Positions 1,218-63,100 of a DNA stretch of 63,261 nt are shown piece by piece. The stretch spans positions 1 to 63,261 of the forward strand of contig CAKZYZ010000333.1 in assembly GCA_937885075.1 (NCBI GenBank). Reading direction: 5' to 3'. Position numbers and translations under genes: made by a program. The notes below the pieces were generated by a model. It was not told the origin of the DNA and searched no databases. It saw nothing but the letters and a program-made list of their open reading frames with translations. Positions within the stretch are counted from its first letter, which is position 1. The number at the start of each line of letters is the position of its first letter. The stretch is from an uncultured bacterium (lineage in GTDB: Bacteria > Auribacterota > Erginobacteria > Erginobacterales > Erginobacteraceae).

Positions 1218-1407
1218 AACATCGAACGTCGAACGCCGAACTTCGAACGTCGAACGACGCATTGGCTTTGAGCGGGGGCAGACAGAGGGATAAAGGCTGA
1301 ACTTCGAATGTCGAACGACGCATTGGCATAGAGCATCGGCAGACAGCGAATTAAAGGCTGAACGTCGAACGTCCAACTTCGAACTTCGAACTTCGAACGT
1401 TGAAAGG
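1218..1407 (+). repeat. Family A (TCGAAC heptamer words) with tandem M2 modules
   Basis: Arm L1 at 1218-1259, then two ~62-nt units AAAGGCTGAAC..GTCGAACGACGCATTGGC(A/T)..GAGC..GGCAGACAG, then a further word run up to the 4HB gene. Confidence 0.85.
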
Positions 1408-1420
1408 AAAAGAAGCTAAG

Positions 1421-1789
1421 ATGAATGATGATAGGAAGTATGATTTAGAAGAGAGACTTTTGGAATATGCCGCGATGATTATCCGTCTGGTCGACCGGCT
1501 GCCGAAAACCCGGGCCGGGAATCATGTCGCTGGTCAGTTGCTGCGATCGGGGACCTCGCCTCTTCCTAATCATGGAGAGGCACAGGCTGCGGAGTCAGCT
1601 CGAGATTTTGTGCATAAATTCAAAGTATGTTTGAAAGAGTTGCGCGAGTCAAAGAGATGGCTTAGATTGATAAAAAGAGTTCCCTTAATAGAGCCAGTAT
1701 CTTCTATAGATTCGCCGATCCATGAGACAGAAGAATTAATAAAAATCTTTGTGAGCAGTATCAAGACGGTACAGCGAAGGGAAGAATGA
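1421..1789 (+). CDS. Four-helix-bundle protein (23S rRNA intervening-sequence protein family)
   Basis: The ORF track gives 1400-1789 (TTG). An in-frame ATG at 1421 gives MNDDRKYDLEERLLEYA... The pattern AGNHVAGQLLRSGTS..NHGEAQAAESARDFVHKFKVCLKELRESKRWL resembles the four-helix-bundle/S23-IVS family. This is recognised from memory, not searched. Confidence 0.75.
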   Translation: MNDDRKYDLEERLLEYAAMIIRLVDRLPKTRAGNHVAGQLLRSGTSPLPNHGEAQAAESARDFVHKFKVCLKELRESKRWLRLIKRVPLIEPVSSIDSPIHETEELIKIFVSSIKTVQRREE

Positions 1790-2078
1790 ACATCGAACAT
1801 CGAACGCTCAACTTCGAACTTCGAACGAGCGGTCCCTGGCCGCCGGCTGAATCTTCGGTTTTTTTCGCCTTCAAAACTCTCCTGCCTGAGTCCATTCGCT
1901 GTTCAGTCGTTGAGCAGTTGCCAGGTTAAATACCCGCGCCACCGAGCCAGCCGAAGTTCGACGTTCGAAGTTGAGCGTTCGACGTTCGATGTTCATTTTT
2001 TAGTTTTTAGCCGCTCGGAGCCTAAAGCCAATGCGATCGTTCGACGTTCGAAGTTGAGCGTTCGATGTTCGATGTTCA
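1787..2078. repeat. Family A inverted repeats downstream of the 4HB gene
   Basis: L2 (1787-1827, starting in the TGA stop) versus R2 (2038-2078) matches 40/41 as a reverse complement. R1 (1951-1994) is the reverse complement of L1 (1218-1259) at about 38/42. Confidence 0.9.
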
Positions 2079-2090
2079 ATCTTTTAAAAC

Positions 2091-4334
2091 ATGATCCTTC
2101 CTTCTCCCCAAAACAACAGCACTCACGCCGAGGTGATCCTGAACCTCAAGGCCGATCTCTGCCTCACCTACACAGTCCCGGAAGAATTAATCCGCCGCCT
2201 GCGGGTTGGACACATGGTCCTGGTCCCTCTGGGCTCCCGCCGGGTGAATGGCTTTGTTACGCTCTTCCCCGCTCCTCCTCCCCGGCGCCCGGGCAGGTCG
2301 ATTATCCGCTTGCTTGACCCGGAACCATTCTTTGGAGATAACCTTATCTCATTGGTACGCTGGATCTCCCAGTATTACTTCTGTTCATTTTCCCGGGCGT
2401 TCAAGACCGCGCTTCCCTCTCCGATCAGGAATACCAGTAATCCATCCCCGGTTCTCCATGTCGCCCTTAATATCTCGGTGGAGGAATCCGGAGAAGAGAT
2501 AGAGAAGTTGGCCGGAAAGGCCCCGCGCCAGGCCGATATACTGAAGGTTCTCCAGGGGAGGACCGGGACCAGCCCGCTCGCGGCCGTTCTGAAGGAATCC
2601 GGGGCGTCCCGGAGTTCATTGACCGCGCTGGAGAAGAAAGGACTGGTAGTCATAAGCCAGGAGGATAGATATACCTCCGGAAGACCGGGCGAAGAGATAC
2701 TGCCTACCGGTCCTCTTGTTCTCAATGATGAACAGAAAGTCGCCTTCAAAGAGATCGTTGACGCAATCGATAATGAGGAGTTCAGGGTATTCCTCCTCCA
2801 CGGGATTACCGGGAGCGGAAAGACCGAGATATATCTCCAGGCGGTCGCCCGGGTGCTGGAGCGGGGGGAGGGAGCGATTATCATGGTCCCGGAGATATCC
2901 CTCACTCCGCAGACCGGGGAACGGTTCCGGTCCCGGTTTGGAGACCAGGTAGTTGTTATCCACAGCGCCCAGGCGGCGGGTGAGCGTTATTCCGCCTGGC
3001 GCCGGTTGGCTGATGGTCGGGCCCGGATTGTCCTCGGGCCCCGTTCCGCTGTCTTCGCTCCGGTAAAAAATCTGGGGTTGATAGTTGTCGATGAAGAGCA
3101 TGAGACTTCATATAAGCAGTCCGCGATCCATCCGTTTTATCATGGCCGCGATGTGGCGGTGATGCGGGGGAAACTGGAGAATTGCCCGGTAATTTTAGGG
3201 TCGGCCACGCCGTCAGTGGAGAGTTATAACAATCAGCGGGAGGGGAAGTATTCTCTCCTGACTCTCTCCCATCGTCCCGATGAGGCGGAACTCCCGAAGG
3301 TCAGGATTATTGATATGCGTCTCGAGCGGGAGAAGTTCCGCGGCGGGAGTTCCTTCTCTTCTATTCTTCTTCGAGAGATGAAGCTGAACCTGGAGGAGGG
3401 AAGGCAGACAATCCTCTTTTTAAACCGGAGAGGTTTCTTTACCGTCCTGGTCTGCCGGGAATGCGGATATGTCGCCCGGTGCCCGCATTGCAGTGTCTCT
3501 CTCACCTACCATAAAGGCAAACGTTTGCAGATATGCCATCTCTGCGGTTATACCGCTGCCCCGGACCGGAGCTGCCCGCTCTGCAAGTCGAAAGATATCA
3601 CCTTCTCCGGGAGGGGAACCCAGAGGATAGAAGAGCAGATAAAGAAGATATTTCCCCAGGCCCGGGTTCGGAGGATGGATACCGACTCGGTCGGCGCCAG
3701 GGATTCTCATCGGATTATACTTGATGAATTCAAAGCGGGCCGGATTGATATTCTGGTCGGTACCCAGATGATCGCTAAGGGACTGGATTTTCCCAATGTG
3801 ACCCTGGTCGGTGTGATCATGGCCGATACCGCGCTCTCCCTCGCGGATTTTCGGGCCACCGAGTACACCTTCCAGATCCTTTCCCAGGTCGGCGGTCGGG
3901 CGGGGAGGGGGGAACTGAAAGGGACGGTTATTATCCAGACCAATTCCCCCCGCCATCCCGCCCTTCTCTCCGCGGTCCGGCACGATTACGCTGCTTTCTT
4001 CGATCAGGAGATCGCTCTCCGGGCCGAACTGGGATATCCCCCTCTCAATCACTTCATCAGCCTGACGGTTCTCTCCCGCAACGAAGATAAGAGTCTCCGG
4101 ATCTGCGAGCATCTTGCCCGCCTCTTAAGGCCCGTGATGGCCCCGGAAGATGAGATCATGGGCCCGGCTCCACCCCCGATCAACCGGATCAGGGGAAGAT
4201 ACCGCTGGCAGCTCCTCTTAAAGACTCACGGGGTGGTATCCACTCTCAGGGCTCTGGGTCAGGTGCTGCCCGGACTGGGAAAAGACCGGGACGTTAAAAT
4301 TGAAGTGGATGTCGATCCCATTTCCATGCTCTGA
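2091..4334 (+). CDS. priA: Primosomal protein N' (replication restart helicase PriA)
   Basis: 747 aa. Walker A GITGSGKT, DEEH box (VVDEEHE), and the Cys-rich zinc region CRECGYVARCPHCSVSLTYH..CHLCGY..CPLC. Confidence 0.95.
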   Translation: MILPSPQNNSTHAEVILNLKADLCLTYTVPEELIRRLRVGHMVLVPLGSRRVNGFVTLFPAPPPRRPGRSIIRLLDPEPFFGDNLISLVRWISQYYFCSFSRAFKTALPSPIRNTSNPSPVLHVALNISVEESGEEIEKLAGKAPRQADILKVLQGRTGTSPLAAVLKESGASRSSLTALEKKGLVVISQEDRYTSGRPGEEILPTGPLVLNDEQKVAFKEIVDAIDNEEFRVFLLHGITGSGKTEIYLQAVARVLERGEGAIIMVPEISLTPQTGERFRSRFGDQVVVIHSAQAAGERYSAWRRLADGRARIVLGPRSAVFAPVKNLGLIVVDEEHETSYKQSAIHPFYHGRDVAVMRGKLENCPVILGSATPSVESYNNQREGKYSLLTLSHRPDEAELPKVRIIDMRLEREKFRGGSSFSSILLREMKLNLEEGRQTILFLNRRGFFTVLVCRECGYVARCPHCSVSLTYHKGKRLQICHLCGYTAAPDRSCPLCKSKDITFSGRGTQRIEEQIKKIFPQARVRRMDTDSVGARDSHRIILDEFKAGRIDILVGTQMIAKGLDFPNVTLVGVIMADTALSLADFRATEYTFQILSQVGGRAGRGELKGTVIIQTNSPRHPALLSAVRHDYAAFFDQEIALRAELGYPPLNHFISLTVLSRNEDKSLRICEHLARLLRPVMAPEDEIMGPAPPPINRIRGRYRWQLLLKTHGVVSTLRALGQVLPGLGKDRDVKIEVDVDPISML

Positions 4335-4380
4335 AGTATTCTCTGCCGGTCCGGCAGAGAATATTTCAGAGCATGGAAAT
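4320..4380 (+). terminator. ~30-bp near-perfect palindrome spanning the priA stop codon
   Basis: ATTTCCATGCTCTGAAGTATTCTCTGCCGG / CCGGCAGAGAATATTTCAGAGCATGGAAAT. The left arm includes the last 5 priA codons. There is no clean T-tract. Confidence 0.55.
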
Positions 4381-4505
4381 GATATGATTTATGGATCTAA
4401 AATCCCACTGATTCAGTTAGCAGTTGGATATCCCACAAGATAGCCTCCGTCTCTTATGTGGCCTACTTGATAAAATATTAATTGATGAAATTAATGAAAT
4501 TCGCA

Positions 4506-5400: not shown

Positions 5401-5652
5401 AGAAAGAAGTTAAAAGTGCCTAAAGTGCGCTTCCGCCGTCACCAAGGCTATGGCGGATAAAAAAGTGCCTTCCTCCGTCGCTAAAGCTTCCGCCTTCGTC
5501 AAGACTATGGCGCACAGGATGGCGGATAGGAAAAGTTGTTCGCCTTCGCCTGGCTTTTTCAGCTCCTCGTTTGCTTCACTTTACCCCTAATGCCGCCATG
5601 TCGGGTTAGGTGATAACTTTCAACTTTAGGCACTTTAGCGCACTTAAGGCAC
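5401..5652. repeat. Family F palindromic element (CTTTAGGCA/CTTTAGCGCA words) abutting the cdd remnant
   Basis: Left end AGAAAGAAGTTAAAAGTGCCTAAAGTGCGC (5401-5430). Right arm GATAACTTTCAACTTTAGGCACTTTAGCGCACTTAAGGCAC (5612-5652). The interior holds M1-like CTATGGCGG motifs. Confidence 0.85.
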
Positions 5653-5847
5653 TACAGAACATTGCCAGAGCGAAGCGATGGCTATGTTCATATGCTTGCC
5701 ATAATGGCACATCAGGGTAATATCCCCCGGAACTGTGCCATAATTACACGGTCAGTTCAGCATTCCAGGGCATAGGTTAATTTAAGAGATCTATATTACT
5801 CCCTAACTTATAGGCAGTTGTAAATAATAATTTATTTTTCCTGATGT

Positions 5848-5856: not shown

Positions 5857-5857
5857 T

Positions 5858-5943: not shown

Positions 5944-7884
5944 ATGGCTAAAGTAATCGGAATAGATTTAGGAACTACTAATTCATGTATGGCTGTAATG
6001 GAGGGGAATGACCCCAAGGTCATCCCGAATGCCGAAGGCAGTCGGGTAACCCCTTCCGTTGTCGCCTTCACCAAGACCGGGGAGCGGCTGGTCGGTCAGC
6101 CCGCCAAGCGCCAGGCGATCACCAACTCGGCCAATACCATCTTCTCCATCAAGCGTTTTATGGGAAGGAGATTCGAGGAGGTTCAGTCCGAGATTAAACT
6201 GGTCCCCTACAAAGTAATCAAAGCCGACAACGGCGACGCCCGGGTAGAGGTCGAGGGAAAGATATATTCCCCGCCTGAGATCTCCGCGATGATTCTGCGG
6301 AAGATGAAGCAAGACGCAGAATCCCACCTCGGCGATAAGGTGACTGGAGCGGTCATCACCGTACCGGCTTACTTCAATGACAGTCAGCGCCAGGCCACCA
6401 AGGACGCCGGGAAGATCGCCGGCCTCGAGGTCCCCCGTATCATCAATGAGCCGACCGCTGCCGCTCTGGCCTATGGGCTGGATAAGAAGAAAGACGAGAT
6501 GATCGCTGTCTTCGACCTCGGTGGAGGTACCTTTGACATCTCGATCCTGGAGATAGGAGAAGGCGTTTTCGAGGTCAAGTCCACCAATGGAGATACTCAC
6601 CTGGGTGGCGACGACTTCGACCAGAGGATCATCGACTGGATCGCCGAGGAGTTCAAGAAAGATCAGGGGATCGACCTGAAGCAGGATCCGATGGCGATCC
6701 AGCGGCTGAAAGAAACCGCCGAGAAGGCCAAGTGTGAGCTCTCCAGTACCATGGAGACGGAGATCAACCTCCCGTTTATCACCGCGGACGCGGCCGGACC
6801 AAAACACCTTTCGATGAAGTTGACCCGGGCCAAGCTGGACCAGCTTTGCGATGACCTGATCGAGCGGACCAAGAGCCCCTGTGAGAAAGCCCTGAAGGAT
6901 GCCGGGTTGAAGAAGGACCAGATCGATGAGGTGATTCTGGTCGGCGGGATGACCCGGATGCCCGCGGTTCAGGAGATGGTCAAGAATCTCTTCGGAAAAG
7001 ATCCCCACAAGGGGGTCAACCCGGACGAGGTAGTCGCGATCGGCGCCGCCGTCCAGGCCGGTGTGCTGGCGGGGGATGTTAAGGATGTTCTGCTTCTGGA
7101 CGTAACGCCACTCTCTCTCGGTATTGAGACATTAGGTGGAGTAATGACCCGCCTGATCGATCGTAACACTACCATCCCCACCAAGAAGAGCGAGATATTC
7201 TCCACCGCCGCCGACAGTCAGACCCAGGTAGAGATCCATGTCCTCCAGGGAGAACGGGAGATGGCCTCCGCCAATCGCACGATCGGAAAGTTTCATCTGA
7301 CCGGCCTTCCGCCCGCGCCCCGCGGTGTTCCTCAGATTGAGGTATCATTCGATATCGATGCCAACGGCATATTGAATGTCACCGCCAAGGATCTCGGCAC
7401 CGGGAAGGAGCAGAATATCACCATCACCGCTTCCAGCGGTCTCTCGGATAACGAGGTAGAGAAGATGGTGAAAGACTCCGAGCAGCATGCCGATGAAGAT
7501 AAGAAACTCCGGGAAGCGGTTGATGCCAAGAACCAGGGTGACGCGGCGGTATATCAGACCGAGAAACTTTTGAAGGAGAATGAAGAGAAGATCAGCGCGG
7601 ACTCCAAAGCTAAGATTGAAGCCGCGATCGAGCGCCTGAAAGAGGCTCTGAAGAAAGAAGACGGGGCTGAGATCAAGTCCGCCACCGATGACCTCAATCA
7701 GGCCTGGCATTCCGTCAGCGAGGAGATGTATAAGCAGGCAACCGCCGCCTCCGCTGATCCCCAGGGAGCGCCCGGAGCTGATGCCGGCCCTCAGACCCCC
7801 TCCCCGGGGACCGAAGCAGGCTCCGCTCCGGAAGGCGAAGTAATCGACGCCGAGTTCGAGGTAGAAGACGAGGAGAAGAAATAA
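5944..7884 (+). CDS. dnaK: Molecular chaperone DnaK (Hsp70)
   Basis: 646 aa. [17 protein letters not shown] and [11 protein letters not shown] motifs. AGGAGG SD. Confidence 0.98.
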
Positions 7885-7995
7885 ATCAGGATATCAGGGA
7901 ATCAGGATACCAGAATATCAGGATATCAGGGGATCAGGCCAGGCTTGGCTAACCTGATATCCTGATCCCCTGATATCCTGATTATCTGATATTCT
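7885..7995. repeat. Family C word-palindrome (RNATCAGG octamers)
   Basis: The left arm (7885-7937) starts at the base after the dnaK stop. Centre CCAGGCTTGGCTAA. Right arm of CCTGAT words at 7953-7995. Confidence 0.9.
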
Positions 7996-10263: not shown

Positions 10264-10451
10264 CCCCTACCTCACCCCCGTTTATGGCAGGACAATTACA
10301 GGAAGGACTATTACCCCCTCCCTCATCCCCCTTTTTATGACAGGACCATTGCAGTCAGGACTATTAGCCTCGACTCGGCTTTTTTTGCTGTGCTTGTGCT
10401 TGCATCCCGATTATTTCGGAGCAATAGTCCTGTCTGTAATCGTCCTGTCTA
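10264..10451 (-). repeat. Family H composite element (CAGGACGATT words + G-rich GGGTGAGGTGGGG module), reverse copy, with an M3 hairpin in the centre
   Basis: Its reverse complement aligns with 43697-43808 (TTTAGACAGGACGATT..AATAGTCYTG.CTG.AATGGTYCTGTCATAAAAA.GGG.TGAGG). The centre carries GCTTGCATCCCGATTATTTCGGAGCAA. Confidence 0.8.
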
Positions 10452-10696
10452 AATTTCTTTTATTTTTTAATTCTTTTTTGTACTTGGATATTCAAAAAAA
10501 GAGAGTAGTACCAGGAAATGGTTCTAACCCGATTTAAAGAAAACGATAAGAGATAAAAGAAACAGAGAGTTTTGGTAGAACATTTTTTATGTTAGAGTGT
10601 GTTATAGAATAATAAAGTGATTCTCTGTTATTTTGCGATGGGTAAGTACAGGTAATAACAACATTAACATTATTGGATAACCATTAAGATGTAGAA

Positions 10697-11444: not shown

Positions 11445-11525
11445 AACAGTAATCTGTAATCGGTTATCAGTAATCGGTAAAACACACTGGCTCACCGTTT
11501 ACTGATCACTGCTTACCGATTACCT
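11445..11525. repeat. Hybrid B/D word-palindrome between convergent comF and the sugar transferase gene
   Basis: Left arm ACAGTAATCTGTAATCGGTTATCAGTAATCGGTAAA. Right arm CCGTTTACTGATCACTGCTTACCGATTACC, which mixes GCTTAC (B) and GATTAC (D) words. Confidence 0.85.
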
Positions 11526-14021: not shown

Positions 14022-14133
14022 GTTTGTAAACATTGAATCAGCATCAATGACTCTGCTCCATATTTTACTAGGCGGCTAACGGCCTTCAACGATCTTTAAC
14101 GACTTTATTTTTCAACGTTTTTATTTTTTAACG

Positions 14134-14152
14134 TTAGCGCCGGAGGCGCTAA
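14134..14152 (+). promoter_or_regulatory. Leader palindrome TTAGCGCC-GGA-GGCGCTAA, 5 nt before the GT2 ATG
   Basis: Perfect 8-bp stem. No SD between it and ATG 14158. Confidence 0.8.
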
Positions 14153-14157
14153 GTTCT

Positions 14158-17254: not shown

Positions 17255-17257
17255 GGA

Positions 17258-49330: not shown

Positions 49331-49362
49331 AGTTGCCCGAACGAAGTGAAGGGTAAGTTCTT

Positions 49363-51636
49363 ATGAAATATAAGTATGTCGAAAAAAGGATCCCCAGGAT
49401 TGACGCGAGGGATAAGGTGACCGGGAAGACTCTCTATTCCACCGATCGTTATCCGGAGGGGATGCTTCGGGCCCGGGTACTGAGGAGCGCGCTTCCTCAC
49501 GCGAAGATAATTAAGCTTGATGTCTCTAAAGCCCGGGAACTGGCGGGAGTGGAAGCGGTGCTTACCCATGAAGATGTTCCCGGCCATAATGGATTTGGAA
49601 TAGTAACCCCCAACTGGCCGGTTCTCTGCGTCGACCGGGTTAAATACCGGGGCGACGCGATCGCCCTGGTGGCGGCGGTGGATGAAGAGACGGCGGAGGA
49701 GGCCCTCTCCCTGATCGAAGTGGAGTATGAACCACTTCCGATTATTGACAGCCCGGAAGAGTCTCTCAGTCCGGATGCTCCCCTGATCCACGAAGATGGT
49801 AATATCCTCCATACAATGGATATTCCTCCCAAGGGGGACGTGGAGAAGGGATTGGCGGAGTCGGAGATTGTTCTCGAGCAGACCTATAAGACCCAGTTCA
49901 TGGAGCATGCCTATATAGAGACAGAAGGCGGCGTGGGCGTCTACAATGAAGATGATGGTGTGGTCACGATCTGGTGCGGAAGTCAGTACGCCTTCCGCGA
50001 TCAGCTCCAGATCGCCCGTTCGCTGGACTGGGAACCGGAGAAGATCAGGGTGATCGGATCTCCGACCGGCGGAGCTTTTGGAGGGAAAGACGAGATCAGT
50101 GTTCAGATTCATCTGGCAATGTTGGCGATATACACGAAAAAACCGGTCCGTCTTCACTGGAGTCGGGAAGAGTCTATTGTGGCCGGTCCCAAGCGGCATG
50201 CCATGACCGCCAGCTTCCGGATCGGAGCTGGCCATGACGGGGTATTCCGGGCGATCGATGTAAAAGTTGTCGCCAATGGAGGCGCCTACGATACCATCTC
50301 CGGCCCGGTTCTCAACCTGGCCCTGGAATCATCCCCTGGTCCCTATAAATACGCTGATTCCCGTTTTAAAGGTATCACTGCCTATACAAATAACGCGATG
50401 GGGGGTGAGTTCCGTGGTTTTGGCGCCCCCCAGGTTGTCTTCGGGGTGGAACAGGAACTTGACAAGCTGGCCCGGAAGCTTCAAATGGACCCGATTGAAC
50501 TCCGCCTCTTAAATGCCGTGGAAGAAGGCGATATCTCCGCCATCGGGCACAGACTTAATACCAGTGCCGGGATTAAGGAGACCCTCGTCGCCGCGGCCGC
50601 TACTTCTCTCTGGAAGGACCGTGATGAAATTAAACATAAGCTCTCCGGCGAAAATAGATACCGGGAGTACGGGATAGGAGTTGCCTCCGAATGGCATGCT
50701 GTTGGAATGGGGGTGGGTATTCCCGACTTCTCCAATATTATCATTGAGATCGGAGAAGGGGGGGCGATAACCCTCCGGACCGGCGCGATTGAGATGGGGC
50801 AGGGGAACCTGACAGCCTATGCCCAGATGCTGGCCGAGGTACTGGAATGCGATATCTCGGCGATCGATGTTATCCACGGAGATACCACGGCCTGTCCTGA
50901 CTCCGGATCAGTTACCGCTTCCCGATCTATCCTGGTTAACGGCAACGCGATCATTGATGGCGTGAGTATCCTGAAACCCATACTGATAAAGATAGCGTCG
51001 GAGAAGCTTGGCATCCCGGAAGATGAACTTGAATATGGCGACGGACGGGTATTCTCCCGGAATGATTCAGGTATCGCGCTGACCCTGGCGGATATCGCGG
51101 ATCAGGCAATTTCCTCATCCCGGTCGCTCAAGGTTACAGGGCACGCGGTTATTGCTATTTCGGATAAGGACTTCGGGGACGGACTGCCTCACAATTATTA
51201 TACCTATATCACCCAGATAGCATTGGTCGGAGTAGATACCGGGACCGGGGAAGTGGAAGTTATCAAGGTGATATCAATCCCCGAGATGGGAAGGGCCATT
51301 AACATAGACGGGGTGGAAGGCCAGTGCGAAGGTTCGGTGGTTATGGGTCAGGGCTACACTCTATATGAAAATATAATAGTGGAAAAGGGTGAGTTCAAGA
51401 CCACCAGTTTTTCTACTTATATTCTGCCCACCGCTCTTGATGTCCCGGAACATGAGACGATCATAGTGGAGAAACCGGAGAAGACCGGTCCTTTTGGAGC
51501 CAAAGGAGTAGGTGAAGCTCCCACGGTCCCGATTATCCCGGCGATCGCCAACGCTATCTATGACGCCGTAGGTATCCGTCTGGAAAAACTCCCCATCACC
51601 CCGGAGTATGTGATGGAGAAGCTAAGGGAGGGATAA
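49363..51636 (+). CDS. Molybdopterin-dependent oxidoreductase, large subunit (xanthine dehydrogenase/aldehyde oxidoreductase family)
   Basis: 757 aa. a/b-hammerhead N-domain (VTGKTLYSTD), GGAFGGK, and a C-terminal GVGE..P motif. Confidence 0.9.
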   Translation: MKYKYVEKRIPRIDARDKVTGKTLYSTDRYPEGMLRARVLRSALPHAKIIKLDVSKARELAGVEAVLTHEDVPGHNGFGIVTPNWPVLCVDRVKYRGDAIALVAAVDEETAEEALSLIEVEYEPLPIIDSPEESLSPDAPLIHEDGNILHTMDIPPKGDVEKGLAESEIVLEQTYKTQFMEHAYIETEGGVGVYNEDDGVVTIWCGSQYAFRDQLQIARSLDWEPEKIRVIGSPTGGAFGGKDEISVQIHLAMLAIYTKKPVRLHWSREESIVAGPKRHAMTASFRIGAGHDGVFRAIDVKVVANGGAYDTISGPVLNLALESSPGPYKYADSRFKGITAYTNNAMGGEFRGFGAPQVVFGVEQELDKLARKLQMDPIELRLLNAVEEGDISAIGHRLNTSAGIKETLVAAAATSLWKDRDEIKHKLSGENRYREYGIGVASEWHAVGMGVGIPDFSNIIIEIGEGGAITLRTGAIEMGQGNLTAYAQMLAEVLECDISAIDVIHGDTTACPDSGSVTASRSILVNGNAIIDGVSILKPILIKIASEKLGIPEDELEYGDGRVFSRNDSGIALTLADIADQAISSSRSLKVTGHAVIAISDKDFGDGLPHNYYTYITQIALVGVDTGTGEVEVIKVISIPEMGRAINIDGVEGQCEGSVVMGQGYTLYENIIVEKGEFKTTSFSTYILPTALDVPEHETIIVEKPEKTGPFGAKGVGEAPTVPIIPAIANAIYDAVGIRLEKLPITPEYVMEKLREG

Positions 51637-51637
51637 A

Positions 51638-51787
51638 GGGGATCAGGTTATCAGGAGATCAGGTTATCAGGAGATCAGGTTATCAGGAGATCAGGGGATC
51701 AGGTTATCAGGAGATCAGGGGATCAGGGTATCAGGAGATCAGGCGAGGCATTCTACCTGATAACCTGATCCCCTGATATCCTGATTA
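51638..51787. repeat. Family C word-palindrome between the molybdoenzyme L and S genes; 13 versus 4 octamers
   Basis: Left arm 51638-51743 = 13 tandem (G/T/A)(G/T/A)ATCAGG octamers. Centre CGAGGCATTCTA. Right arm 51756-51787 = 4 CCTGAT words. Confidence 0.9.
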
Positions 51788-53194: not shown

Positions 53195-53203
53195 ACCGGG
53201 GAT

Positions 53204-53269
53204 TGATCCGACCGATCCGACCGATCATAGATCCGACCGATCAGTCCGATCCGACTGATCCGTCCGATT
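53204..53269 (+). repeat. Family E nonamer array (TCCGACCGA variants), direct only
   Basis: GATCCGACC GATCCGACC GATCATAGA TCCGACCGA TCAGTCCGA TCCGACTGA TCCGTCCGA. Ends 10 nt before the mocA ATG. Confidence 0.85.
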
Positions 53270-53279
53270 AAATACCGCA

Positions 53280-54088: not shown

Positions 54089-54117
54089 TAAATTAGCGAC
54101 CAAAGGGAGCTAATTTA
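54089..54117 (+). promoter_or_regulatory. Variant leader palindrome immediately 5' of rplM
   Basis: TAAATTAGC-GACCAAAGGGA-GCTAATTTA, followed directly by ATG 54118. The loop holds a weak AAGGGA SD-like sequence. Confidence 0.65.
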
Positions 54118-54575: not shown

Positions 54576-54628
54576 GCGTCAATCTTAGTGTATCTCCACT
54601 AAGTTAGCGCCGGAGGCGCTAACTTAAG
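54576..54628 (+). promoter_or_regulatory. Leader cassette immediately 5' of rpsI
   Basis: GCGTCAATCTTAGTGTATCTCCACT + AAGTTAGCGCC-GGA-GGCGCTAACTT, then AAG-ATG. No SD. Confidence 0.8.
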
Positions 54629-55089: not shown

Positions 55090-55128
55090 ATGTTAAAACC
55101 AGATTGTTTTTGATATAAATAGTACAAG

Positions 55129-55283
55129 AACTTAGCTTCGCAACTTTTTTGCCACTAAGACACTAAGACACAAAGAAAAGATTTAAAGATGCAATAACAA
55201 CGTTTTTTTATATTTCTTGAGTTTTTCTTAGTGTCTTTGTGCCTTTGTGGCGGATTTATTTATATTCCGAAGCAGTAAAGTAT
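55129..55283 (+). mobile_element. Family G MITE-like element, copy 5
   Basis: GAACTTAGCTTCGCAACTTTTTT + GCCACTAAGACACTAAGACACAAAGAAAAG .. TTTTTCTTAGTGTCTTTGTGCCTTTGTGGC + GGATTTATTTATATTCCGAAGCAG. Confidence 0.8.
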
Positions 55284-56346: not shown

Positions 56347-56440
56347 GTGAAAAGGTAAGCAGTAAACAGTAAGCGGTAAGCGGTTGGCCAGTTGCTTTTA
56401 CCGCTTACTGCTAACCGCTTACCGCTCACTAGCTTTTCAC
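56347..56440. repeat. Family B word-palindrome between argC and argJ
   Basis: GTGAAAAG + GTAAGCAGTAAACAGTAAGCGGTAAGCGG, centre TTGGCCAGTTGCTT, then TTACCGCTTACTGCTAACCGCTTACCGCTCAC + CTTTTCAC. Confidence 0.9.
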
Positions 56441-57715: not shown

Positions 57716-58596
57716 TGAAAAAAGTGATTCAGAAAGCCGCGGTATTGGTTGAGGCGCTTCCATATATCCAGTCATTCCAGAAAAAGGTGGTGGTAGTAAA
57801 ACTGGGGGGGAGCGCGATGATCTCTCCGGAATGTATCGAGGGAGTTCTGCGGGATGTGGTCTTTATGGAGGCGGTTAAGATGAAGCCGGTATTGGTTCAC
57901 GGCGGGGGTAACGCGATCAGCCTCCGGATGAAGGAAGCCGGAATTCAGCCCCAATTTATTGATGGACTGCGGGTAACCGATTTGGATGCAATCGGTATTG
58001 TGCGGGAGGTGCTCTCCGAGATTAATGGTACTTTAAGCGCGCAGATCCGCGATATGGGCGGAAGGGCGGTGGGGTTAGTTGATAAGTCGGAGTTGGTTAT
58101 TGAGGCTGGGAAACTTCTTCCCATGTTAGCCGGCAAGTCGGGGGAATCAAAACCGACTGACATCGGGTTTGTCGGAGAAGTCAGACGGATTGATGTGGAG
58201 GCTATCCGGAAGATTATCCGACGCGACCGGGTTCCGGTGATTGCTCCTCTAGGTAAAGATGAGAAAGGAAATGTATATAATATCAATGGTGATATGGCCG
58301 CCGGGGCGCTCGCGGCGGAACTGAAGGCGGAGAAGCTGGTCTTCCTCACCGATGTGGAAGGGATTATGACCAAATCGGATCACAGACAGATTCTTTCATC
58401 ATTGAAGAGAGAAGATATTGTCCGCTTGATGGACGAAGGGACGATTGCCGGGGGGATGATCCCCAAGGTGATGGCTGGTCTTCATGCTCTGGAGAACGGG
58501 GTCAAAAAGATTCATATCATCGATGGAAGGATCAAGCACTCGCTTCTATTGGAGATATTTACCGACAAAGGAATCGGGACCGAGATTGTTAATTAG
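57715..58596 (+). CDS. argB: Acetylglutamate kinase
   Basis: VVVKLGGSA..VLVHGGG..NINGDMAAG. Confidence 0.95.
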   Translation: MKKVIQKAAVLVEALPYIQSFQKKVVVVKLGGSAMISPECIEGVLRDVVFMEAVKMKPVLVHGGGNAISLRMKEAGIQPQFIDGLRVTDLDAIGIVREVLSEINGTLSAQIRDMGGRAVGLVDKSELVIEAGKLLPMLAGKSGESKPTDIGFVGEVRRIDVEAIRKIIRRDRVPVIAPLGKDEKGNVYNINGDMAAGALAAELKAEKLVFLTDVEGIMTKSDHRQILSSLKREDIVRLMDEGTIAGGMIPKVMAGLHALENGVKKIHIIDGRIKHSLLLEIFTDKGIGTEIVN

Positions 58597-58860
58597 GGAA
58601 TGGGGAGTGGGGAGTAGGGAGTGGGAGGCAAAGCACCGTGCTCGGCAAAAAATGAAATATTCAACCAGTCGCTGCCAAGGTCATGGCGGCCCAGGCGTCG
58701 AACTTTCAACATCGAACTTCGAACATCGAATGTCGAATGAGAAAAGCGACTAAGTCTAGGCGAAACAATTAGTGTGAATTAGTGTAATTAGTGGACAGCA
58801 AAGCCGCCCCGCCGAGGCGAAGCAATCAGAGTAATCTGTGTAATCCGTGGACAAAAAAAG
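58596..58860 (+). repeat. Mosaic between argB and argD (AGTGGGG words, degenerate M1, A words, module I copy 2)
   Basis: AATGGGGAGTGGGGAGTAGGGAGTGGGAGG. ACCAGTCGCTGCCAAGGTCATGGCGGCCCAGGCG. TCGAAC words at 58697-58739. Module I at 58759-58860 is about 88% identical by eye to 35688-35790. Confidence 0.85.
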
Positions 58861-58875
58861 GTAAGGAATAAAACG

Positions 58876-60066
58876 ATGAGCAAGACGGCAGACTACATTA
58901 AAGAATATGATAAATATGTCTTGGGGACCTATACCCGCAATCCCATAGTGATTGAACGGGGAGAAGGGTCGTGGGTCTGGGACGCGGAAGGGAAGAAGTA
59001 CCTGGATTTCTTTCCCGGCTGGGGGGTAAGCAGTCTGGGGCATTGTCATCCGGCCGTGGTTAAGGCGGTAAAAGAACAGGTTGGCCGTATTCTTCACATG
59101 CCGAATAATTTCTATAATGAATGGCAGGGACGCCTCGCCCGTAAGATCGTGGAGAAGGCATTTTCCGGGAAAGTATTTTTTGGCAACTCCGGAGCGGAAG
59201 CCAATGAGGGAGCGCTCAAATTGGCCCGGAGATTCGGCGAACCCGAAGGCCGGTTCGAGATCATCACAATGAATGCCTCCTTTCACGGACGATCTCTGGC
59301 TACCATTACCGCCACCGGTCAGGAGAAATACCACTCCGGGTTTGGTCCTCTCATCCCCGGCTTTAAGTATGTTCCGTTCAACGATCTCTCCGGTTTGAAG
59401 AATGCGATCACCGACAAGACAACGGCAATTATGCTGGAGCTGGTCCAGGGGGAGGGCGGCGTAAATGTGGCCCGGCCGGATTATGTTCAGGCTATCCGGG
59501 AGATCTGCGATGAGAAACGGATCCTGATGATTGTCGATGAAGTGCAGACCGGTATGGGAAGAACCGGAGAGTACTTTGTTTTTCAGACCTATGGGATTGA
59601 ACCGGATGTTATGACCCTGGCCAAAGCGCTGGGAGGCGGCCTGCCGATCGGCGCGTTTGTAGTTAAAGATGAATTTGCCGGATATCTTCCTCCCGGAACT
59701 CATGCCTCGACCTTCGGGGGGAGTCCGATAGTCTGTGCGGCTTCTCTGGCGGTATTCCAGGTGATGGAAGAGGGAAAGATTCTGGATAATGTTGGAGAGA
59801 TGGGTGATTATCTTCTGGAAGAGCTTCTCCGCCTTAAAGCGGAGTTTCCGATAATAAAGGAAGTCCGCGGGATTGGTTTGATGCTGGGTATAGAACTGGA
59901 CCGGGAAGGAAAACCGATTGTGGATAGCTGCCTGGATAAAGGGCTGATGGTTAACTGTACCGCCGGAAACATCCTGAGAGTAATGCCGGCCTGTAATATT
60001 AATAGAGATGAAATAAAGCATGCTATTATGATTCTGCGCGGGGTTTTGCGTGAGAATGGAGACTGA
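58876..60066 (+). CDS. argD: Acetylornithine aminotransferase
   Basis: Class-III aminotransferase: NSGAEANEGALKLAR, DEVQTGMGRTG, TLAKALGGG. Confidence 0.93.
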   Translation: MSKTADYIKEYDKYVLGTYTRNPIVIERGEGSWVWDAEGKKYLDFFPGWGVSSLGHCHPAVVKAVKEQVGRILHMPNNFYNEWQGRLARKIVEKAFSGKVFFGNSGAEANEGALKLARRFGEPEGRFEIITMNASFHGRSLATITATGQEKYHSGFGPLIPGFKYVPFNDLSGLKNAITDKTTAIMLELVQGEGGVNVARPDYVQAIREICDEKRILMIVDEVQTGMGRTGEYFVFQTYGIEPDVMTLAKALGGGLPIGAFVVKDEFAGYLPPGTHASTFGGSPIVCAASLAVFQVMEEGKILDNVGEMGDYLLEELLRLKAEFPIIKEVRGIGLMLGIELDREGKPIVDSCLDKGLMVNCTAGNILRVMPACNINRDEIKHAIMILRGVLRENGD

Positions 60067-60070
60067 AGGG

Positions 60071-60183
60071 AAATCAGTAATCAGTGATCGGTAATCAGTT
60101 GGCCCGGTGCCCGGTTGCCTGGTTAGGTTACTGATAACTGATTACCGTTTACTGATTACTTTTTTTAAATTACCGATTACTGT
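60071..60183. repeat. Family D word-palindrome between argD and argG
   Basis: Left arm AAATCAGTAATCAGTGATCGGTAATCAGT. Centre TGGCCCGGTGCCCGGTTGCCTGGTTAGG. Right arm TTACTGATAACTGATTACCGTTTACTGATTAC, with an extra TTACCGATTACTG. Confidence 0.9.
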
Positions 60184-60201: not shown

Positions 60202-61398
60202 ATGAGCAAAGTAGTACTGGCGTATTCCGGGGGTCTTGATACCTCCATCATTTTGAAATGGCTCCAGACCGAGAAAGGGCTGGATGTAGTGGCTTTCATT
60301 GCCGACGTGGGGCAGGCGGAAGAAGTTGAGGAAGCCGCCCTGAAAGCGGAGAAGACCGGAGCGGTCGCGGTTTATGTGGAGGATCTTCAGGAAGAATTTG
60401 TCCGTGATTTTGTCTTCCCGGCCATCCAGGCCAACGCGGTCTATGAGGGGACCTATCTGCTGGGGACCGCCCTGGCCCGGCCCCTGATCGCGAAAAAGAT
60501 GATTGAGATCGCGGCAAAAGAGGGGGCGGAATATGTCTCCCACGGCGCGACCGGGAAGGGGAATGACCAGGTGCGATTTGAGATCAGCGCGATCGCGCTC
60601 AATCCCGATATCAAGATCATCGCCCCCTGGCGGGAGTGGAGTTACAGATCACGGAGCGATCTGATGGCTTATGCCCGGGAACATGGGATTGAGATCCCGG
60701 TAACCAAAGAGAAGCCGTACAGCAGCGACCGCAATCTCCTCCATATCAGTTTTGAGGGCGGTATCCTGGAAGATCCCTGGACCGCGCCGCCCGACGATAT
60801 GTTTCTTCTCAGTCTATCTCCTCAGGCGGCTCCGGATCGGACCACCACTATCGAGATTGAATTTAAGGGGGGGATCCCGATCGCGGTGGATGGAGAAGAG
60901 CTTTCTCCCGCCGCTCTGCTGGCCCGTGTGAACAAGCTGGGTGGGGAGAATGGAATTGGACGCCTTGATATCGTTGAGAACCGATATGTGGGGATGAAGA
61001 GCCGGGGTGTCTATGAGACACCGGGCGGGACCATTCTCCATGTCGCTCACCGGGCACTGGAGACGATCACCCTTGACCGGGAAGTCCTTCACTTCAAGGA
61101 TTCATTGATTACCAAGTACTCGGAGCTGGTCTATAACGGTTTCTGGTTCTCCCCGGAGATGGATCTCCTGAAAAAGACCATCTCAGAGAGCCAGAAATAT
61201 GTGAACGGTACGGTTCGGTTGGAACTCTATAAAGGCAACTGCATGGTAACCGGAAGAAAGTCCCCGAACTCCCTCTACGATCCGGAGATGGTGACCTTCG
61301 AGGAAGACGATGTCTACCAGCAGAGCGATGCCACCGGATTTATCCGGTTGAATGCTCTACGATTAAAGATTGGAGCTAAACTAAGAAAGAAGTTATAA
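60202..61398 (+). CDS. argG: Argininosuccinate synthase
   Basis: [23 protein letters not shown]. The last 5 codons and the stop coincide with a family-F element terminus. Confidence 0.96.
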
Positions 61399-61618
61399 GT
61401 GCCTGATGGGGAAAAGTTGTAAGTGCCTAAAGTGCGCTAAAGTGCCTAAAGTTGTTGCCTTCGCATAGGTGCATTGGTGAGCTTTCAGTGAACCAGCTAC
61501 TCCGTGTTCATAGCGGGGTGCTGTAGCCGCGGTCGCTGACCGCGGGAGGCAATGCCGAGAGCACCGAGGCGAAGGCGACAACTTTAGGCACTTAAGCGCA
61601 CTTTAGGCACTTATTACA
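61384..61618. repeat. Family F palindromic element between argG and argH, with a ~100-nt structured centre
   Basis: The left end AGAAAGAAGTTATAAGTGCC equals the argG 3' end. Left arm GTGCCTAAAGTGCGCTAAAGTGCCTAAAGTTGTTGCCTTCGC. Right arm GCGAAGGCGACAACTTTAGGCACTTAAGCGCACTTTAGGCAC. The centre has nested stems (GGTGCATTGG../..GGCAATGCC..GCACC; GCGGTC-GCTG-ACCGC). Confidence 0.9.
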
Positions 61619-61628
61619 TAGGAGGAAT

Positions 61629-63011
61629 ATGATGGCTGGCAAGCTCTGGGGAGGAAGGTTCCGGAAGAAGACCGATGAACTGATGGAAGATTTCAGCTCT
61701 TCTCTACCTTTCGATTGGCGTCTCTACCGGGCGGATATTAAAGCCGGTATCGCCCATGCCAGGATCCTGCGTGAAGGAGGATATCTTACCGCCGGAGAGA
61801 GGGACCGGATCATCCGGGCGTTGCAAGAGATCGAGAAGGAGATCGCGGCGGGGAAGCTTGATCTCAACTCCGGATATGAGGATATCCATAGTCTAATCCT
61901 GGCGATGCTCTCAGAGAAGACCGGAGTTCTGGGTGAAAAACTCCATGCCGGGCGATCCCGCAACGATCTGGTGGTTCTGGATACCCGGATCTATCTCAAA
62001 GAAGAGATCAATGGTCTGATTGAGCTAATCCGGGGATTACAGTCCGCCCTGGTGGAGAAGGGGATAGAGTACCGGGATCTGATCATGCCGGGATATACTC
62101 ATCTCCAGCACGCCCAATCGGTTCTGGTGCCGCACCATCTCCTGGCTTATGTCGAGATGCTGGCTCGCGACCGGTCCAGATTGGAAGATGCCCGGAAGCG
62201 GATGGATATTCTCCCGGCCGGCTCCGCGGCGATGGGCGGGAGTAACTTGAAGCTCGACCAGAAGCTATTGGCGAAACTGCTCGAATTCAAGGGTCTTGCC
62301 TCCAATAGTCTGGACGCGGTAGGAGATCGGGATTTCATCGTGGAGACCATCTCCGCCCTGGCGCTGATCGGGATGCACATCTCCCGGTTGGCCGGGGAAC
62401 TGGTCCTCTGGTCTACTTTCGAGTTCAATTTTGTCGAGTTTGACGAGGCATATTCGACCGGGAGCAGCTTCCTCCCGCAGAAAAAGAACCCCGATCCGGC
62501 TGAACTGGTCCGGGGTAAGGCCGGCCGGCTCTATGGGAACCTGCTCTCCGTCCTGGTTGCTTTGAAAGGATTGCCTCTGGCCTACAACCGTGATCTCCAG
62601 GAAGATAAGGAACCGCTCTTTGATTCACTCGATACCGTCCGGGATTCTCTGGCAATTATGGCCGGAGTTATCGGAACAATAAAATTTAATGCCGGCCCTC
62701 TCCAAGCCTCCGCCGAGAAGGGTTTTTCCTCCGCCCCGGATCTGGCGGAATATCTAGTAGATAAGGGGGTTCCCTTCCATCAGGCTCATCGGCGGGTGGG
62801 AGAGCTGGTTGCCTGGGCGATAAAAAATGGAAAGAGCCCGGAGGATATTACTCTGGATGATCTGAGGAAGTTTTCGCCCGCCTTTGACGGGCCGGCCCTG
62901 AAGCTGATGACCCCTCTGGCGTCGATCAAAGCAAAAAAGACCATAGGAAGCACCGCCCCGGCTCTGGTGAGACACCAGTTGAACCGGTGGAGGAAGAAGC
63001 TGGGGGGATAA
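61629..63011 (+). CDS. argH: Argininosuccinate lyase
   Basis: LWGGRF, GYTHLQHAQ, GSSFLPQKKNPD signature. Confidence 0.96.
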   Translation: MMAGKLWGGRFRKKTDELMEDFSSSLPFDWRLYRADIKAGIAHARILREGGYLTAGERDRIIRALQEIEKEIAAGKLDLNSGYEDIHSLILAMLSEKTGVLGEKLHAGRSRNDLVVLDTRIYLKEEINGLIELIRGLQSALVEKGIEYRDLIMPGYTHLQHAQSVLVPHHLLAYVEMLARDRSRLEDARKRMDILPAGSAAMGGSNLKLDQKLLAKLLEFKGLASNSLDAVGDRDFIVETISALALIGMHISRLAGELVLWSTFEFNFVEFDEAYSTGSSFLPQKKNPDPAELVRGKAGRLYGNLLSVLVALKGLPLAYNRDLQEDKEPLFDSLDTVRDSLAIMAGVIGTIKFNAGPLQASAEKGFSSAPDLAEYLVDKGVPFHQAHRRVGELVAWAIKNGKSPEDITLDDLRKFSPAFDGPALKLMTPLASIKAKKTIGSTAPALVRHQLNRWRKKLGG

Positions 63012-63100
63012 AGACCGAACGTTCAACTCTCAACTTTCAACTTTCAAAGGCACAGGCTGGCATAGAGCAACAGTCCGATCAGTCGGGTCCGACCGATCCG
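63008..63100 (+). repeat. Mosaic after argH (A' TTCAAC words + M2-like centre + E words)
   Basis: GATAAAGACCGAACGTTCAACTCTCAACTTTCAACTTTCAA contains the argH stop. Then GGCTGGCATAGAGCAACAG, then TCCGATCAGTCGGGTCCGACCGATCCGTCCGAT. The two arms are not complementary. Confidence 0.8.

Follow-up and report, generated by a model that had tools for sequence, protein, structure and literature searches.

The intergenic DNA of contig CAKZYZ010000333.1 (assembly GCA_937885075.1), a stretch of 63,261 nucleotides from an uncultured bacterium that was analysed at its full length and is referred to as the window, carries a dense set of non-coding, mostly hairpin-forming repeat families. Their arms are tandem arrays of 7–10-nt words, of the same kind as arrays described from cyanobacteria, Xanthomonas and Geobacter metallireducens, and this descriptive part of our explanation is well supported. 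In full, the reading that we favour, and which as a joint claim we regard as on balance probable, is that these repeats are co-transcribed, slippage-prone, copy-spreading hairpins at gene 3′ ends that probably form mRNA stem-loops and are not terminators; their RNA function and mode of spread are inferred. They are not a new kind of element, but a very dense, multi-family and modular instance of intergenic tandem-heptamer hairpin repeats in a candidate phylum of the PVC group.

Word Arrays and Hairpins in the Window

A typical element consists of a G-run, n tandem words, a family-specific centre and m reverse-complement words, often followed by a short run rich in C, with which the G-run pairs. 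Arms measure 20–130 nt with 3 to 14 words each, and at least nine unrelated word sets occur in the window, with periods from 7 to ~10–15, plus nested modules of 24–28 nt. Tandem Repeats Finder reported ~60 intergenic arrays with a period of 7–10, while a fixed filter gave 61 arrays and 17 strict pairs of a left array, a short gap and a reverse-complement array, compared to 0–2 arrays and not a single pair in 20 dinucleotide shuffles. Period 7 was the commonest (33 of the 61 arrays). The pattern (GTRAGCR)x4 with at most two mismatches was matched 32 times in the window, with 0 matches expected, and an independent inverted-repeat search returned 68 pairs with arms of up to 56 nt and 73–97 % complementarity. 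Family words are 4–60 times denser in intergenic than in coding DNA. Elements were found in 35 of the 49 intergenic gaps and total, by manually drawn spans, ~5.5 kb, which is about half of the 10.3 kb of intergenic DNA and 8.7 % of the window, so the earlier estimate of about 10 % was a fair one. Their non-coding nature also holds, as word periods of 7–8 break reading frames, and the open reading frames (ORFs) that enter elements are either artefacts or short element-coded protein tails.

Twenty clean word hairpins fold with free energies (ΔG) of −25 to −134 kcal/mol and z-scores of −3.7 to −16.4 against shuffles, and four additional composite palindromes fold with z-scores between −5.6 and −10. 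In a search of the window against Rfam 15 at gathering thresholds, a tRNA was the sole pass and no repeat family was matched. At E≤1 the word hairpins matched only microRNA-precursor models below threshold (e.g. 42 bits versus 168), the other weak matches falling outside the word hairpins. A CRISPR array was considered and rejected, since the higher-order units of 61 and 66 nt repeat the would-be repeat and spacer parts alike.

Direct reading of the centres revealed conserved motifs next to the right arm, GGCRGCGAC in family B and GGCCAAC in family D, the latter also present in the distant relative L126, one of the syntenic contigs whose GlyS identity to the window is 88 % (L121–L124), 81 % (L125) and 62 % (L126). 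Each family is therefore a genuine repeat family rather than a set of independent slippage products. In 16 of the 17 window pairs the 5′ arm is the purine-richer one. As a palindrome gives the same reading from either strand, this rule is a genuine constraint on arm order. Slippage within each arm is indicated by the element at 29284–29540, whose arms have been homogenised separately (CAGT in the left versus CGGT in the right), making the antisense fold 42 kcal/mol more stable.

The nested modules proposed originally were recovered as exact matches, with M1 at 21802, M2 at 1312 and M3 at 35624, and so were the recurrent centre motifs, GCATTGGC at 1259, 1320 and 38021, its complement GCCAATGC at 2027 and 46053 (plus 56707), and TTGGCCA at 29424 and 56384. 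As nesting and shared modules are both seen, the BIME-like mosaic logic of the original prediction stands. Within the window, M2 (46045, minus strand) and M1 (46075, minus strand) are reversed only in the sole minus-strand gene cluster. M1 and the gene lying 5′ of it share their orientation in 58 versus 9 cases, or 35 versus 3 when co-directional gaps are considered, and the orientation of the module relative to transcription therefore matters.

Position at Gene Ends

The first array of a gap begins at a median of 18 nt past the upstream stop codon, which it touches or overlaps in eight gaps, and the median distance from the array end to the next start is 56 nt. Several protein C-termini are encoded by the elements. 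The G-run and the first words specify the final GGGGKQ* of ThiC and of a 7TM-HD protein, whose orthologues end differently, and the ends of the sigma factor (GDGRK*) and RecO (LGGGI*) are likewise element-derived and unlike those of the orthologues (26166–26183, 32941–32958, 42119–42136 and 34478–34495). At the opposite side of the gaps, the elements create false ORF starts for rmlB, rmlD, pfkB and argJ. Such listed starts running into right arms are artefacts, as rmlD homology begins only at residue 45 and the PfkB kinase at residue 73.

Elements also lie within ancestral operons. They separate glyQ from glyS by 338 nt and interrupt phoH|HD|ybeY, gene groups that overlap in L126, and they are found between xdhA and xdhC. 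In the arg cluster they occupy four of the five gaps from argC to argH as well as the region after argH, and are missing from the 27-nt argJ|argB gap. As the elements stand within operons whose genes overlap or are coupled in relatives, expression of the downstream genes would have to rely on read-through.

The hairpins do not resemble intrinsic terminators. Mostly 2–4 T residues (0–5 in 19 of the 20 hairpins) occur in the 8 nt past the stem, and not one of the terminator-like sites detected between 24 and 44 kb coincides with a word hairpin. Ordinary terminators with a GC-rich stem and a T-run do exist after groEL, rpsI and the gene at 48512–49147 (hyp2). We therefore rejected the intrinsic-terminator reading on the basis of the mostly missing U-tracts and the lack of coincidence with the scan sites in the 24–44 kb region.

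Turnover at Orthologous Sites

Comparison with the syntenic contigs showed that the sites are dynamic and not static. The ThiC|PfkB gap carries a B hairpin in the window and, with other arm lengths, in L125, and a hairpin with D/B-like words in L126 (it is not covered in L122); the centres of the window and L125 orthologues are more alike than copies within one genome. The HD|YbeY gap holds a B hairpin of 8.9/6.3 words in the window and 12.9/7.1 words in L125, a 1.2-kb A-family complex in L122 and nothing in L126, where the genes overlap. Between GlyQ and GlyS, L122 carries 357 nt of elements and L125 only 80 nt without arrays. The B hairpin of the GlyS|PPDK gap is shared by the window and L125, split by a nested A-family insert of ~430 nt in L122, and absent from L126. 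The D hairpin between the LysM protein and PhoH has arms of ~130 nt in the window and of only 2–3 and 6 words in L122, while L126 lacks a word hairpin at this site and L125 is not comparable, as phoH was not called. Finally, the D hairpin of the Sig|Apt gap is absent from L122, L125 and L126. Orthologous gaps thus display gain, loss, family replacement, nesting and arm-length changes by whole words.

Two side observations concern the closest contigs. Two 66-nt composite A-family units distinguish contigs from different samples that share 99.7 % identity (compared stretches: L121 6742–6906 versus L122, and L124 7796–8300 versus L122 12382–12710), and L124 departs from synteny inside an element complex.

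Distribution in the Lineage and Search for Mobility Genes

The exact 28-nt M1 sequence retrieved 40 further metagenome loci amounting to 314 kb with 49 % GC. These contained 204 arrays (6.5 per 10 kb), which belong to families F, A, D and G-like and to others. The elements are thus genome-wide in this lineage, so that neither their lack in the rest of the genome nor unchanging orthologous sites, both named beforehand as grounds for refutation, applies. The lineage is present in the JGI metagenomes 3300025661, 3300025698 and related samples.

Transposase, integrase and RAYT genes are absent among the annotated window ORFs, as had been noted before. ORF annotation combined with a multicopy-ORF search detected no RAYT/Y1 transposase in the window or the 314 kb of lineage contigs, which cover part of the genome, and no insertion sequence elements were found in the sampled lineage DNA. 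All-versus-all ORF clustering of 377 kb revealed no multicopy mobility gene and grouped only FG-GAP surface proteins and ordinary paralogues.

Relation to Known Repeat Systems

Tandem heptamers of the STRR type were reportedly described from cyanobacteria by Mazel and colleagues in 1990, and Elhai and colleagues are said to have found in 2008 that SDR modules of ~21–27 nt are nested inside tandem heptamer arrays and hairpins of Nostoc punctiforme. Modules M1, M2 and M3 recall this nesting, for instance where an M3-like sequence lies within M1 at 21722–21780, whereas the sequences are unrelated and the phylum is a different one.

In Xanthomonas, 183–186 GGGAATC arrays per genome were reported, typically of ~4 units (range 2–26) and 89–93 % intergenic, of which 70–75 convergent inverted pairs are able to form a stem-loop; they lie on average 28 nt from the upstream ORF end, much nearer than to the next start, and sister species do not share the sites (Rehm et al. 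2015, PMC4692102). The same authors state that no detailed literature on heptamer repeats existed. Tandem heptamers, inverted stem-loop pairs, intergenic location near the upstream ORF end and non-conserved sites are all found in the window as well. Xanthomonas differs by its one G-rich word with quadruplex potential, whereas the window holds at least nine word sets plus nested 24–28-nt modules, its own G-rich heptamer array (58596–58625) being a minor family.

Geobacter metallireducens carries several families of 4–5 tandem words of 7–8 nt (GTTGCTYN, MTYCTGA, GGACCGG), mostly as opposite-strand pairs, which are multicopy, mainly intergenic and absent from the sister species; these “global regulator binding sites” were read as sites for IHF/HU, a guess offered without a test (Aklujkar et al. 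2009, PMC2700814). The multiplicity of families and the paired opposite-strand words are shared with the window, where the number of words is not fixed at 4–5 but ranges from 3 to 14 per arm, giving arms of up to 130 nt.

TAACTGA repeats are known from Beggiatoaceae, Cyanobacteria and Bacteroidetes, with no evident transfer mechanism and a role that is only suggested (MacGregor 2015, PMC4679880). They comprise 2–6 direct copies a few nucleotides upstream of start codons, and in the Beggiatoaceae genome nearly all are direct repeats just 5′ of starts, with one indirect repeat in 170 sets. According to Mrazek et al. 2007, as cited in that work (PMC4679880), heptamers are in many bacteria the most frequent type of long simple repeat, for which slippage of the polymerase was proposed. 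A separate Nostoc preprint considers that heptamer repeats may have regulatory effects and postulates a binding partner. The window shares intergenic tandem heptamers, patchy occurrence across phyla and copy number steps of 7 nt with the STRR and TAACTGA repeats, and family D even contains exact TAACTGA words. In the window, however, inverted pairs located at the stop codon of the upstream gene predominate, and we rejected membership in the TAACTGA repeats because the family D words concerned (TGATTAC/TGATAAC) represent the 3′ arms of gene-end hairpins.

REP sequences are fixed imperfect palindromes of 20–40 nt that are linked to a RAYT transposase; REPs share a transcript with the gene preceding them and, inside operons, protect upstream mRNA. 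The window elements resemble REP, BIME and REPIN in being extragenic, hairpin-forming and probably co-transcribed mosaics that occur within operons and in several families per genome. They were nevertheless rejected as units of this type, as their arms are variable tandem word arrays of 20–130 nt and not a fixed 20–40-nt palindrome.

With tandem words beyond chance, a nearby reverse-complement array, a stop-proximal intergenic site, and non-conserved sites with whole-word changes, the elements show all four features of inverted-pair intergenic tandem-heptamer repeats (LSSR/STRR type), to which they belong. The original prediction that they differ from every known family has to be withdrawn in view of the precedents in Xanthomonas (PMC4692102), G. 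metallireducens (PMC2700814) and cyanobacteria and Beggiatoaceae (PMC4679880) and of (GTRAGCR)n hairpins in other phyla; the correspondence is one in kind, with no curated entry and no match in Rfam. The paper describing the Auribacterota does not mention repeats.

The Same Arrangement in Other Phyla

A scan for (GTRAGCR)x4 with one genome per species returned at least 120 loci. The matches listed, to which the following counts refer, came from more than 10 phyla, including Acidobacteriota (many of them Pyrinomonadaceae), Gemmatimonadota, Chloroflexota, Desulfobacca, Nitrospirae, Verrucomicrobia, Planctomycetes, Bacteroidota, Cyanobacteria, Proteobacteria and others. Many of these loci consist of a left array, a centre and a reverse-complement array, with several different words per genome and with centres that differ from those of the window; a Microcystis locus pairs CAGTRAN arrays with (CTGATAA)n. 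The hairpins are intergenic in 86 of 94 cases, lie at a median of 2 nt from a gene 3′ end (73 of 91 within 30 nt) and occur in 6 divergent versus 16 convergent versus 49 co-directional gaps. The 5′ arm was the purine-richer one in 85 versus 13 pairs, and across all pairs stop codons were counted in favour of the 5′ arm by 68 versus 17. As a hypothesis, purine-rich words carrying TAA or TGA every 7 nt would close all frames from either side.

The occurrence of (GTRAGCR)n in more than 10 phyla, the purine bias of 85:13 and the median distance of 2 nt from gene ends are compatible with a single cross-phyla class of stop-abutting tandem-heptamer palindromes. Their purine-rich, stop-rich 5′ arms would close all frames on both strands, and they would spread without a dedicated transposase, e.g. 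by template switching or hairpin-primed copying at gene ends. If so, cells would reuse these hairpins as operon punctuation. We regard this joint claim as unlikely. The regularities across phyla in stop-codon position, arm order and module orientation are leads for a systematic survey.

Proposed Mode of Action and Alternatives

The mechanism that we propose for the window elements begins with copying into gene-end and hairpin-centre sites, which might be performed by host replication and repair functions or by an unlinked enzyme, followed by growth of each arm through replication slippage. The elements would then be transcribed as part of the upstream mRNA, where long stems could serve as 3′-end barriers or RNase III processing sites that punctuate operon transcripts, rather than as intrinsic terminators. 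Stop-codon-rich 5′ arms may help to make insertion at gene ends harmless, although this is a weak rationale. We infer that the elements are tolerated and partly retained at gene 3′ ends and would act, if at all, as mRNA stem-loops.

Several observations weigh against this reading. Some 11 sites, either one-armed arrays or mosaics, show no better folding than shuffles (z~0), among them 1208–1404, 17255–17445, 20515–20596, 22195–22240, 27725–27850, 35476–35812, 49265–49335, 58596–58875 and 63012–63106, so that the single architecture originally proposed for 35 or more sites was an overstatement. Overall stability does not differ between sense and antisense folds, which contain 71 and 66 G⋅U pairs, respectively; the hallmark expected of selection on an RNA structure is therefore lacking, and RNA-level selection as judged by G⋅U versus A⋅C asymmetry is unsupported. 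No mobility enzyme was seen in the sampled DNA, and comparison of filled with empty orthologous sites gave no clear target-site duplication of the kind that marks MITEs, the element edges being blurred by G-runs and word slippage. The differences between near-identical contigs could represent real repeat-mediated rearrangement or assembly mis-joins, and could in part be assembly error. The stop-codon rationale is weakened further, as families A, E and H carry no stops, family C has them in the 3′ arm, and the excess in the other-phyla matches listed shrinks to 25 versus 14 (p=0.11) when query-like words are left out.

Among the alternatives, purely selfish or neutral DNA, with position and orientation merely reflecting tolerated insertion sites, is a serious though less probable explanation. 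It would account for the rapid gain, loss and replacement at orthologous sites, for the many sites at which the most distant relative L126 has no elements and overlapping genes, for the missing folding asymmetry, and for the element-coded protein tails, which resemble tolerated damage. The failure to find a transfer mechanism between lineages, with a role only suggested, in PMC4679880 is in line with it, too. It is opposed by the ThiC|PfkB hairpin, which is kept at one site across GlyS identities of 81 % and 62 % and whose centre, as described above, is more alike between the window and L125 than among copies within the genome. The M1 orientation bias of 35 versus 3 furthermore argues that at least one orientation matters once transcribed.

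It is unlikely that the elements are non-canonical terminators or attenuators, that is, hairpins without a U-tract marking the ends of transcription units. Their abutment to stop codons, their very stable stems, the depletion in divergent gaps seen among the other-phyla matches listed (6 versus 16 convergent and 49 co-directional) and the TTTTTT following 60070–60162 would fit such a role. It is contradicted by the pairs they split, which are translationally coupled in relatives (glyQ-glyS, phoH-HD-ybeY) and show no recognisable downstream promoter, by the low T counts past the stems, by the ordinary hairpin-plus-T-run terminators after groEL, rpsI and hyp2, and by the third of the sites that do not fold.

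We give still less credence to a role in duplex DNA as binding arrays that would be read by a nucleoid-associated protein or some other repeat-recognising one, as proposed with IHF/HU for G. metallireducens. Each word is a potential repeated binding site, opposite-strand paired arrays were so read in PMC2700814, the strand-symmetric folding fits a role of duplex DNA, and a protein partner for heptamer repeats has been postulated in Nostoc; yet at least nine unrelated word sets would require many proteins or a very loose reader, neither the stop-codon position nor the transcription-linked module orientation is predicted, and no candidate protein gene is linked. Similarly improbable are REPIN-like elements mobilised in trans by a single-copy Y1 transposase (RAYT or IS200-IS605-type) encoded elsewhere in the genome. 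The dispersed, extragenic, multi-family hairpins follow an inverted doublet logic (PMC3116915), and as RAYTs are single-copy, their absence from ~380 kb is not decisive; still, neither the window nor the sampled lineage contigs contain a Y1 gene, the word-array arms vary up to 130 nt instead of forming a fixed 20–40-nt palindrome, and their whole-word length changes point to slippage. Metagenome assembly artefacts at low-complexity sequence, brought to mind by the frequent breaks and mis-joins of contigs at repeats and by the departure of L124 from synteny inside an element complex, can practically be dismissed, since elements occupy the same sites in independent assemblies (JGI and ENA samples), the same families recur on 40 further contigs, and isolate or complete genomes of other phyla show the same architecture among the matches listed.

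Elements of this kind split operons, rewrite protein C-termini, create false ORF starts and occupy contig breakpoints, and therefore affect annotation and assembly of uncultured genomes. Published accounts of the architecture are scattered (2009, 2015) and offer neither a mechanism nor a function. With its density, its many families and its syntenic relatives at 88 %, 81 % and 62 % GlyS identity, the present case is well suited for studying birth, movement and decay of repeats, and for asking whether they set mRNA stability within operons.

Genes and Element Families of the Window

The window encodes ~52 housekeeping genes, nearly all on the plus strand, including udg, priA, dnaK, groES/EL, rml genes, pfp, gmhA, thiC, phoH, ybeY, recO, glyQS, ppdK, a sigma factor gene, apt, purC, xdhACB, rplM-rpsI and argCJBDGH. 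Among named organisms, its GlyS is closest to that of Candidatus Aureabacteria (54 %) and Ca. Erginobacter occultus (48 %). Both belong to the Ca. Auribacterota within the PVC group, which makes the bacterium a member of that phylum or a neighbour of it; an exact look-up of the GroEL product gave no record. At 58756–60066 the longest ORF, of 421 aa and without a Pfam hit, runs on the minus strand; the true gene is the plus-strand argD (58876–60066, class-III aminotransferase), and the argC-J-B-D-G-H cluster is therefore co-directional. In the following, a strand is given for arrays and mosaics only.

Family A starts with direct GAACRTC arrays (1208–1404, plus strand, z −0.1), which Tandem Repeats Finder also reported and which form three blocks with two M2 copies (1251 and 1312) between them and a higher-order period of 61 nt. 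The giant A-family palindrome at 1782–2083 (ΔG −134, z −10, 50-nt arms with 94 % complementarity) is composed of a left array (1788–1826), a 125-nt centre, reverse-complement arrays (1952–1994 and 2038–2077) and a reverse M2. Between these two, within the A-family region 1208–2083, lies a gene for a four-helix-bundle protein (1421–1789; TIGR02436, the family of 23S rRNA intervening sequences), directly upstream of the palindrome and bordering its left edge. This gene was considered as a partner or “master” of the repeats and rejected, as phmmer found 0 homologues in 120 other-phyla loci and 0 in 46 lineage loci. At 21722–22000 (plus strand, z −2.4), A words including an array at 21868–21910 accompany two M1 modules, the first of which is split by an inverted M3-like insert. 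The adjacent element at 22005–22240 (z −5.9) comprises an A′-family hairpin (GAATRTC, 22009–22097), a K module at 22102 and a solitary F right-arm array (22201–22233) located 26 nt 5′ of pfp. A G-rich junction with an A′ array (CAACTTT) and E words follows 3′ of argH (63012–63106, plus strand).

A B-family (GTRAGCR) hairpin at 18536–18710 has a 39-nt higher-order unit and 56-nt arms with 88 % complementarity (ΔG −103, z −12.1) and overlaps the over-extended rmlD ORF start. Further B hairpins were located at 26172–26304 (z −6.7), which supplies the ThiC stop and tail and whose site is kept in L125 and L126, at 32944–33090 (z −8.4), which with its G-run junction does the same for the HD protein, at 37970–38125 (4.4/12 words, GCATTGGC in the centre, z −7.8) and in the argC/argJ gap at 56352–56430 (z −5.3). 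A D/B-family hairpin lies between convergent genes at 11447–11522 (z −5.1). Family C is represented by a hairpin of 6.8 RNATCAGG and 5 CCTGATNY words that begins at the dnaK stop (7883–7994, ΔG −59, z −7.5) and by one of 13.4/3.9 words that begins at the stop in the xdhA/xdhC gap (51630–51787, z −5.8). Of the D hairpins, the one at 24228–24303 (AGTRATC, z −6.3) starts at −12 from the gmhA stop, which falls within its second word; the largest, at 29284–29540 (z −7.7), combines an interrupted left arm of ~130 nt with a right arm of 14 GATYACC words; that at 42130–42220 (z −12.5) supplies the sigma-factor stop and is missing from L122, L125 and L126; and that in the argD/argG gap (60070–60162, z −7.5) contains the exact TAACTGA words (60128–60160) and is the sole word hairpin with a T-run (TTTTTT) after it.

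Family E occurs as direct arrays on the plus strand, GTCCGACNN x4 at 24836–24875 (found by Tandem Repeats Finder) and GATCCGACC x7 at 53200–53270 (z −3.3), and as a mini-hairpin on the minus strand at 45975–46131, where M2, M1 and A words are all reversed in the sole minus-strand gene cluster. F-family hairpins pair AAAGTGCCT with CTTTAGGCA at 5405–5660 (M1-like modules in the centre, z −5.6) and fill the argG/argH gap at 61400–61616 with a GC-rich centre and 53-nt arms of 92 % complementarity (ΔG −134, z −16.4). Solitary F arms, all on the plus strand, comprise a left-arm array (17277–17309) that sits with a G-rich junction and two K modules (AAAAGGGGCCGAGGYRGGGGG) at 17255–17445 (z −0.9), right-arm arrays around a small GC hairpin at 27725–27850 (Tandem Repeats Finder) and a right-arm array ~30 nt 5′ of xdhA at 49265–49335. 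The form AAAGTGCCT (17277–17309, 61421–61452) sits ~22 nt past stop codons, and the form CTTTAGGCA (22195–22240, 27725–27850, 49265–49335, 61581–61612) 16–105 nt upstream of start codons; these start-proximal arms, including the solitary ones, recall the TAACTGA repeats of Beggiatoaceae.

Hairpins of G-family octamers (CACWAAGR) are found at 19926–20020 (AT-rich centre, z −3.7), at 28380–28500 (z −6.2; preceded by the small hairpin AACTTAGCTTCGCAAGTT and a T-run), in the phoH|HD gap at 30576–30684 (z −5.2; in L122 only 5 nt separate the two genes, which overlap in L126), after recO at 34496–34608 (z −6.7), and past the canonical terminator 3′ of rpsI at 55125–55256 (z −5.9). Family H forms palindromes of CAGGACNATT words at 10264–10452 (C-rich left end, M3 in the centre at 10398, z −5.8) and, ending in a K module (43785), at 43655–43850 (z −6.9), as well as a one-armed direct array of CAGGACGATT with a period of ~15 (20515–20596, plus strand, z +1.6). 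Family J is a hairpin of AATGACGAAA words with a centre of ~75 nt and 55-nt arms of 82 % complementarity (41003–41202, z −5.7), and a short, weakly self-complementary ATTTGKR array lies at 33620–33670 (z −2.1). Two plus-strand mosaics complete the set. The glyQ/glyS mosaic (35476–35812, z +0.5) is not a hairpin and strings together an H array, A words with M1, M3, a CAACGTT array, arrays of the 10-mer AATTAGTGTA and a K-like G-rich end, while the argB/argD mosaic (58596–58875, z −0.8) consists of a GGGGAGT array at the stop (58596–58625), an M1-like module, an A array and 10-mer arrays.

Further Sequence Features

Apart from the word arrays, a conserved palindrome, AAGTTAGCGCC-N4-GGCGCTAACTT, was detected at 14133–14157, 15373–15395, 19653–19675, 28598–28620, 48489–48511, 54092–54117 and 54603–54628 and at 3747–3771 of L126, with at least 21 non-redundant copies in ~450 kb of lineage DNA. 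It is frequently preceded by TTAGTGYACTTYCAMTAAG, and some copies are lengthened to TTCAAAACTAAATTAGCGCC...GGCGCTAATTTAGTTTTGAA. Its end lies 2–5 nt 5′ of the ATG in five genes of the window, rplM and rpsI among them, mostly without a Shine–Dalgarno sequence, and it could be an operator, a hairpin of the 5′-untranslated region or a bidirectional terminator.

In the tRNA-Gly(CCC) region (27386–27581), an insert of ~100 nt is followed by a second copy of the tRNA 3′ end (GATTCCCTTCACCCGCTCTA, ~27441 and ~27562). The duplication is also present in L122 and missing from L125 and L126, the insert holds the motif GGTTCTCAGTC that recurs in other gaps, and the arrangement resembles what an element integrated at the 3′ end of the tRNA would leave behind. 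Upstream of udg (1–353), GC-rich hairpin modules (CCCCGGGTTGAAACCCGGGG, GGACCCCTTTGGGGTCC) occur in a 73-nt tandem duplication and in more copies, with a sub-threshold Rfam match to the Acido-Lenti-1 RNA (25 bits versus a threshold of 37). A 31-bp palindrome with 97 % complementarity and a 1-nt loop, which is not built from tandem words, spans the priA stop codon at 4319–4381.

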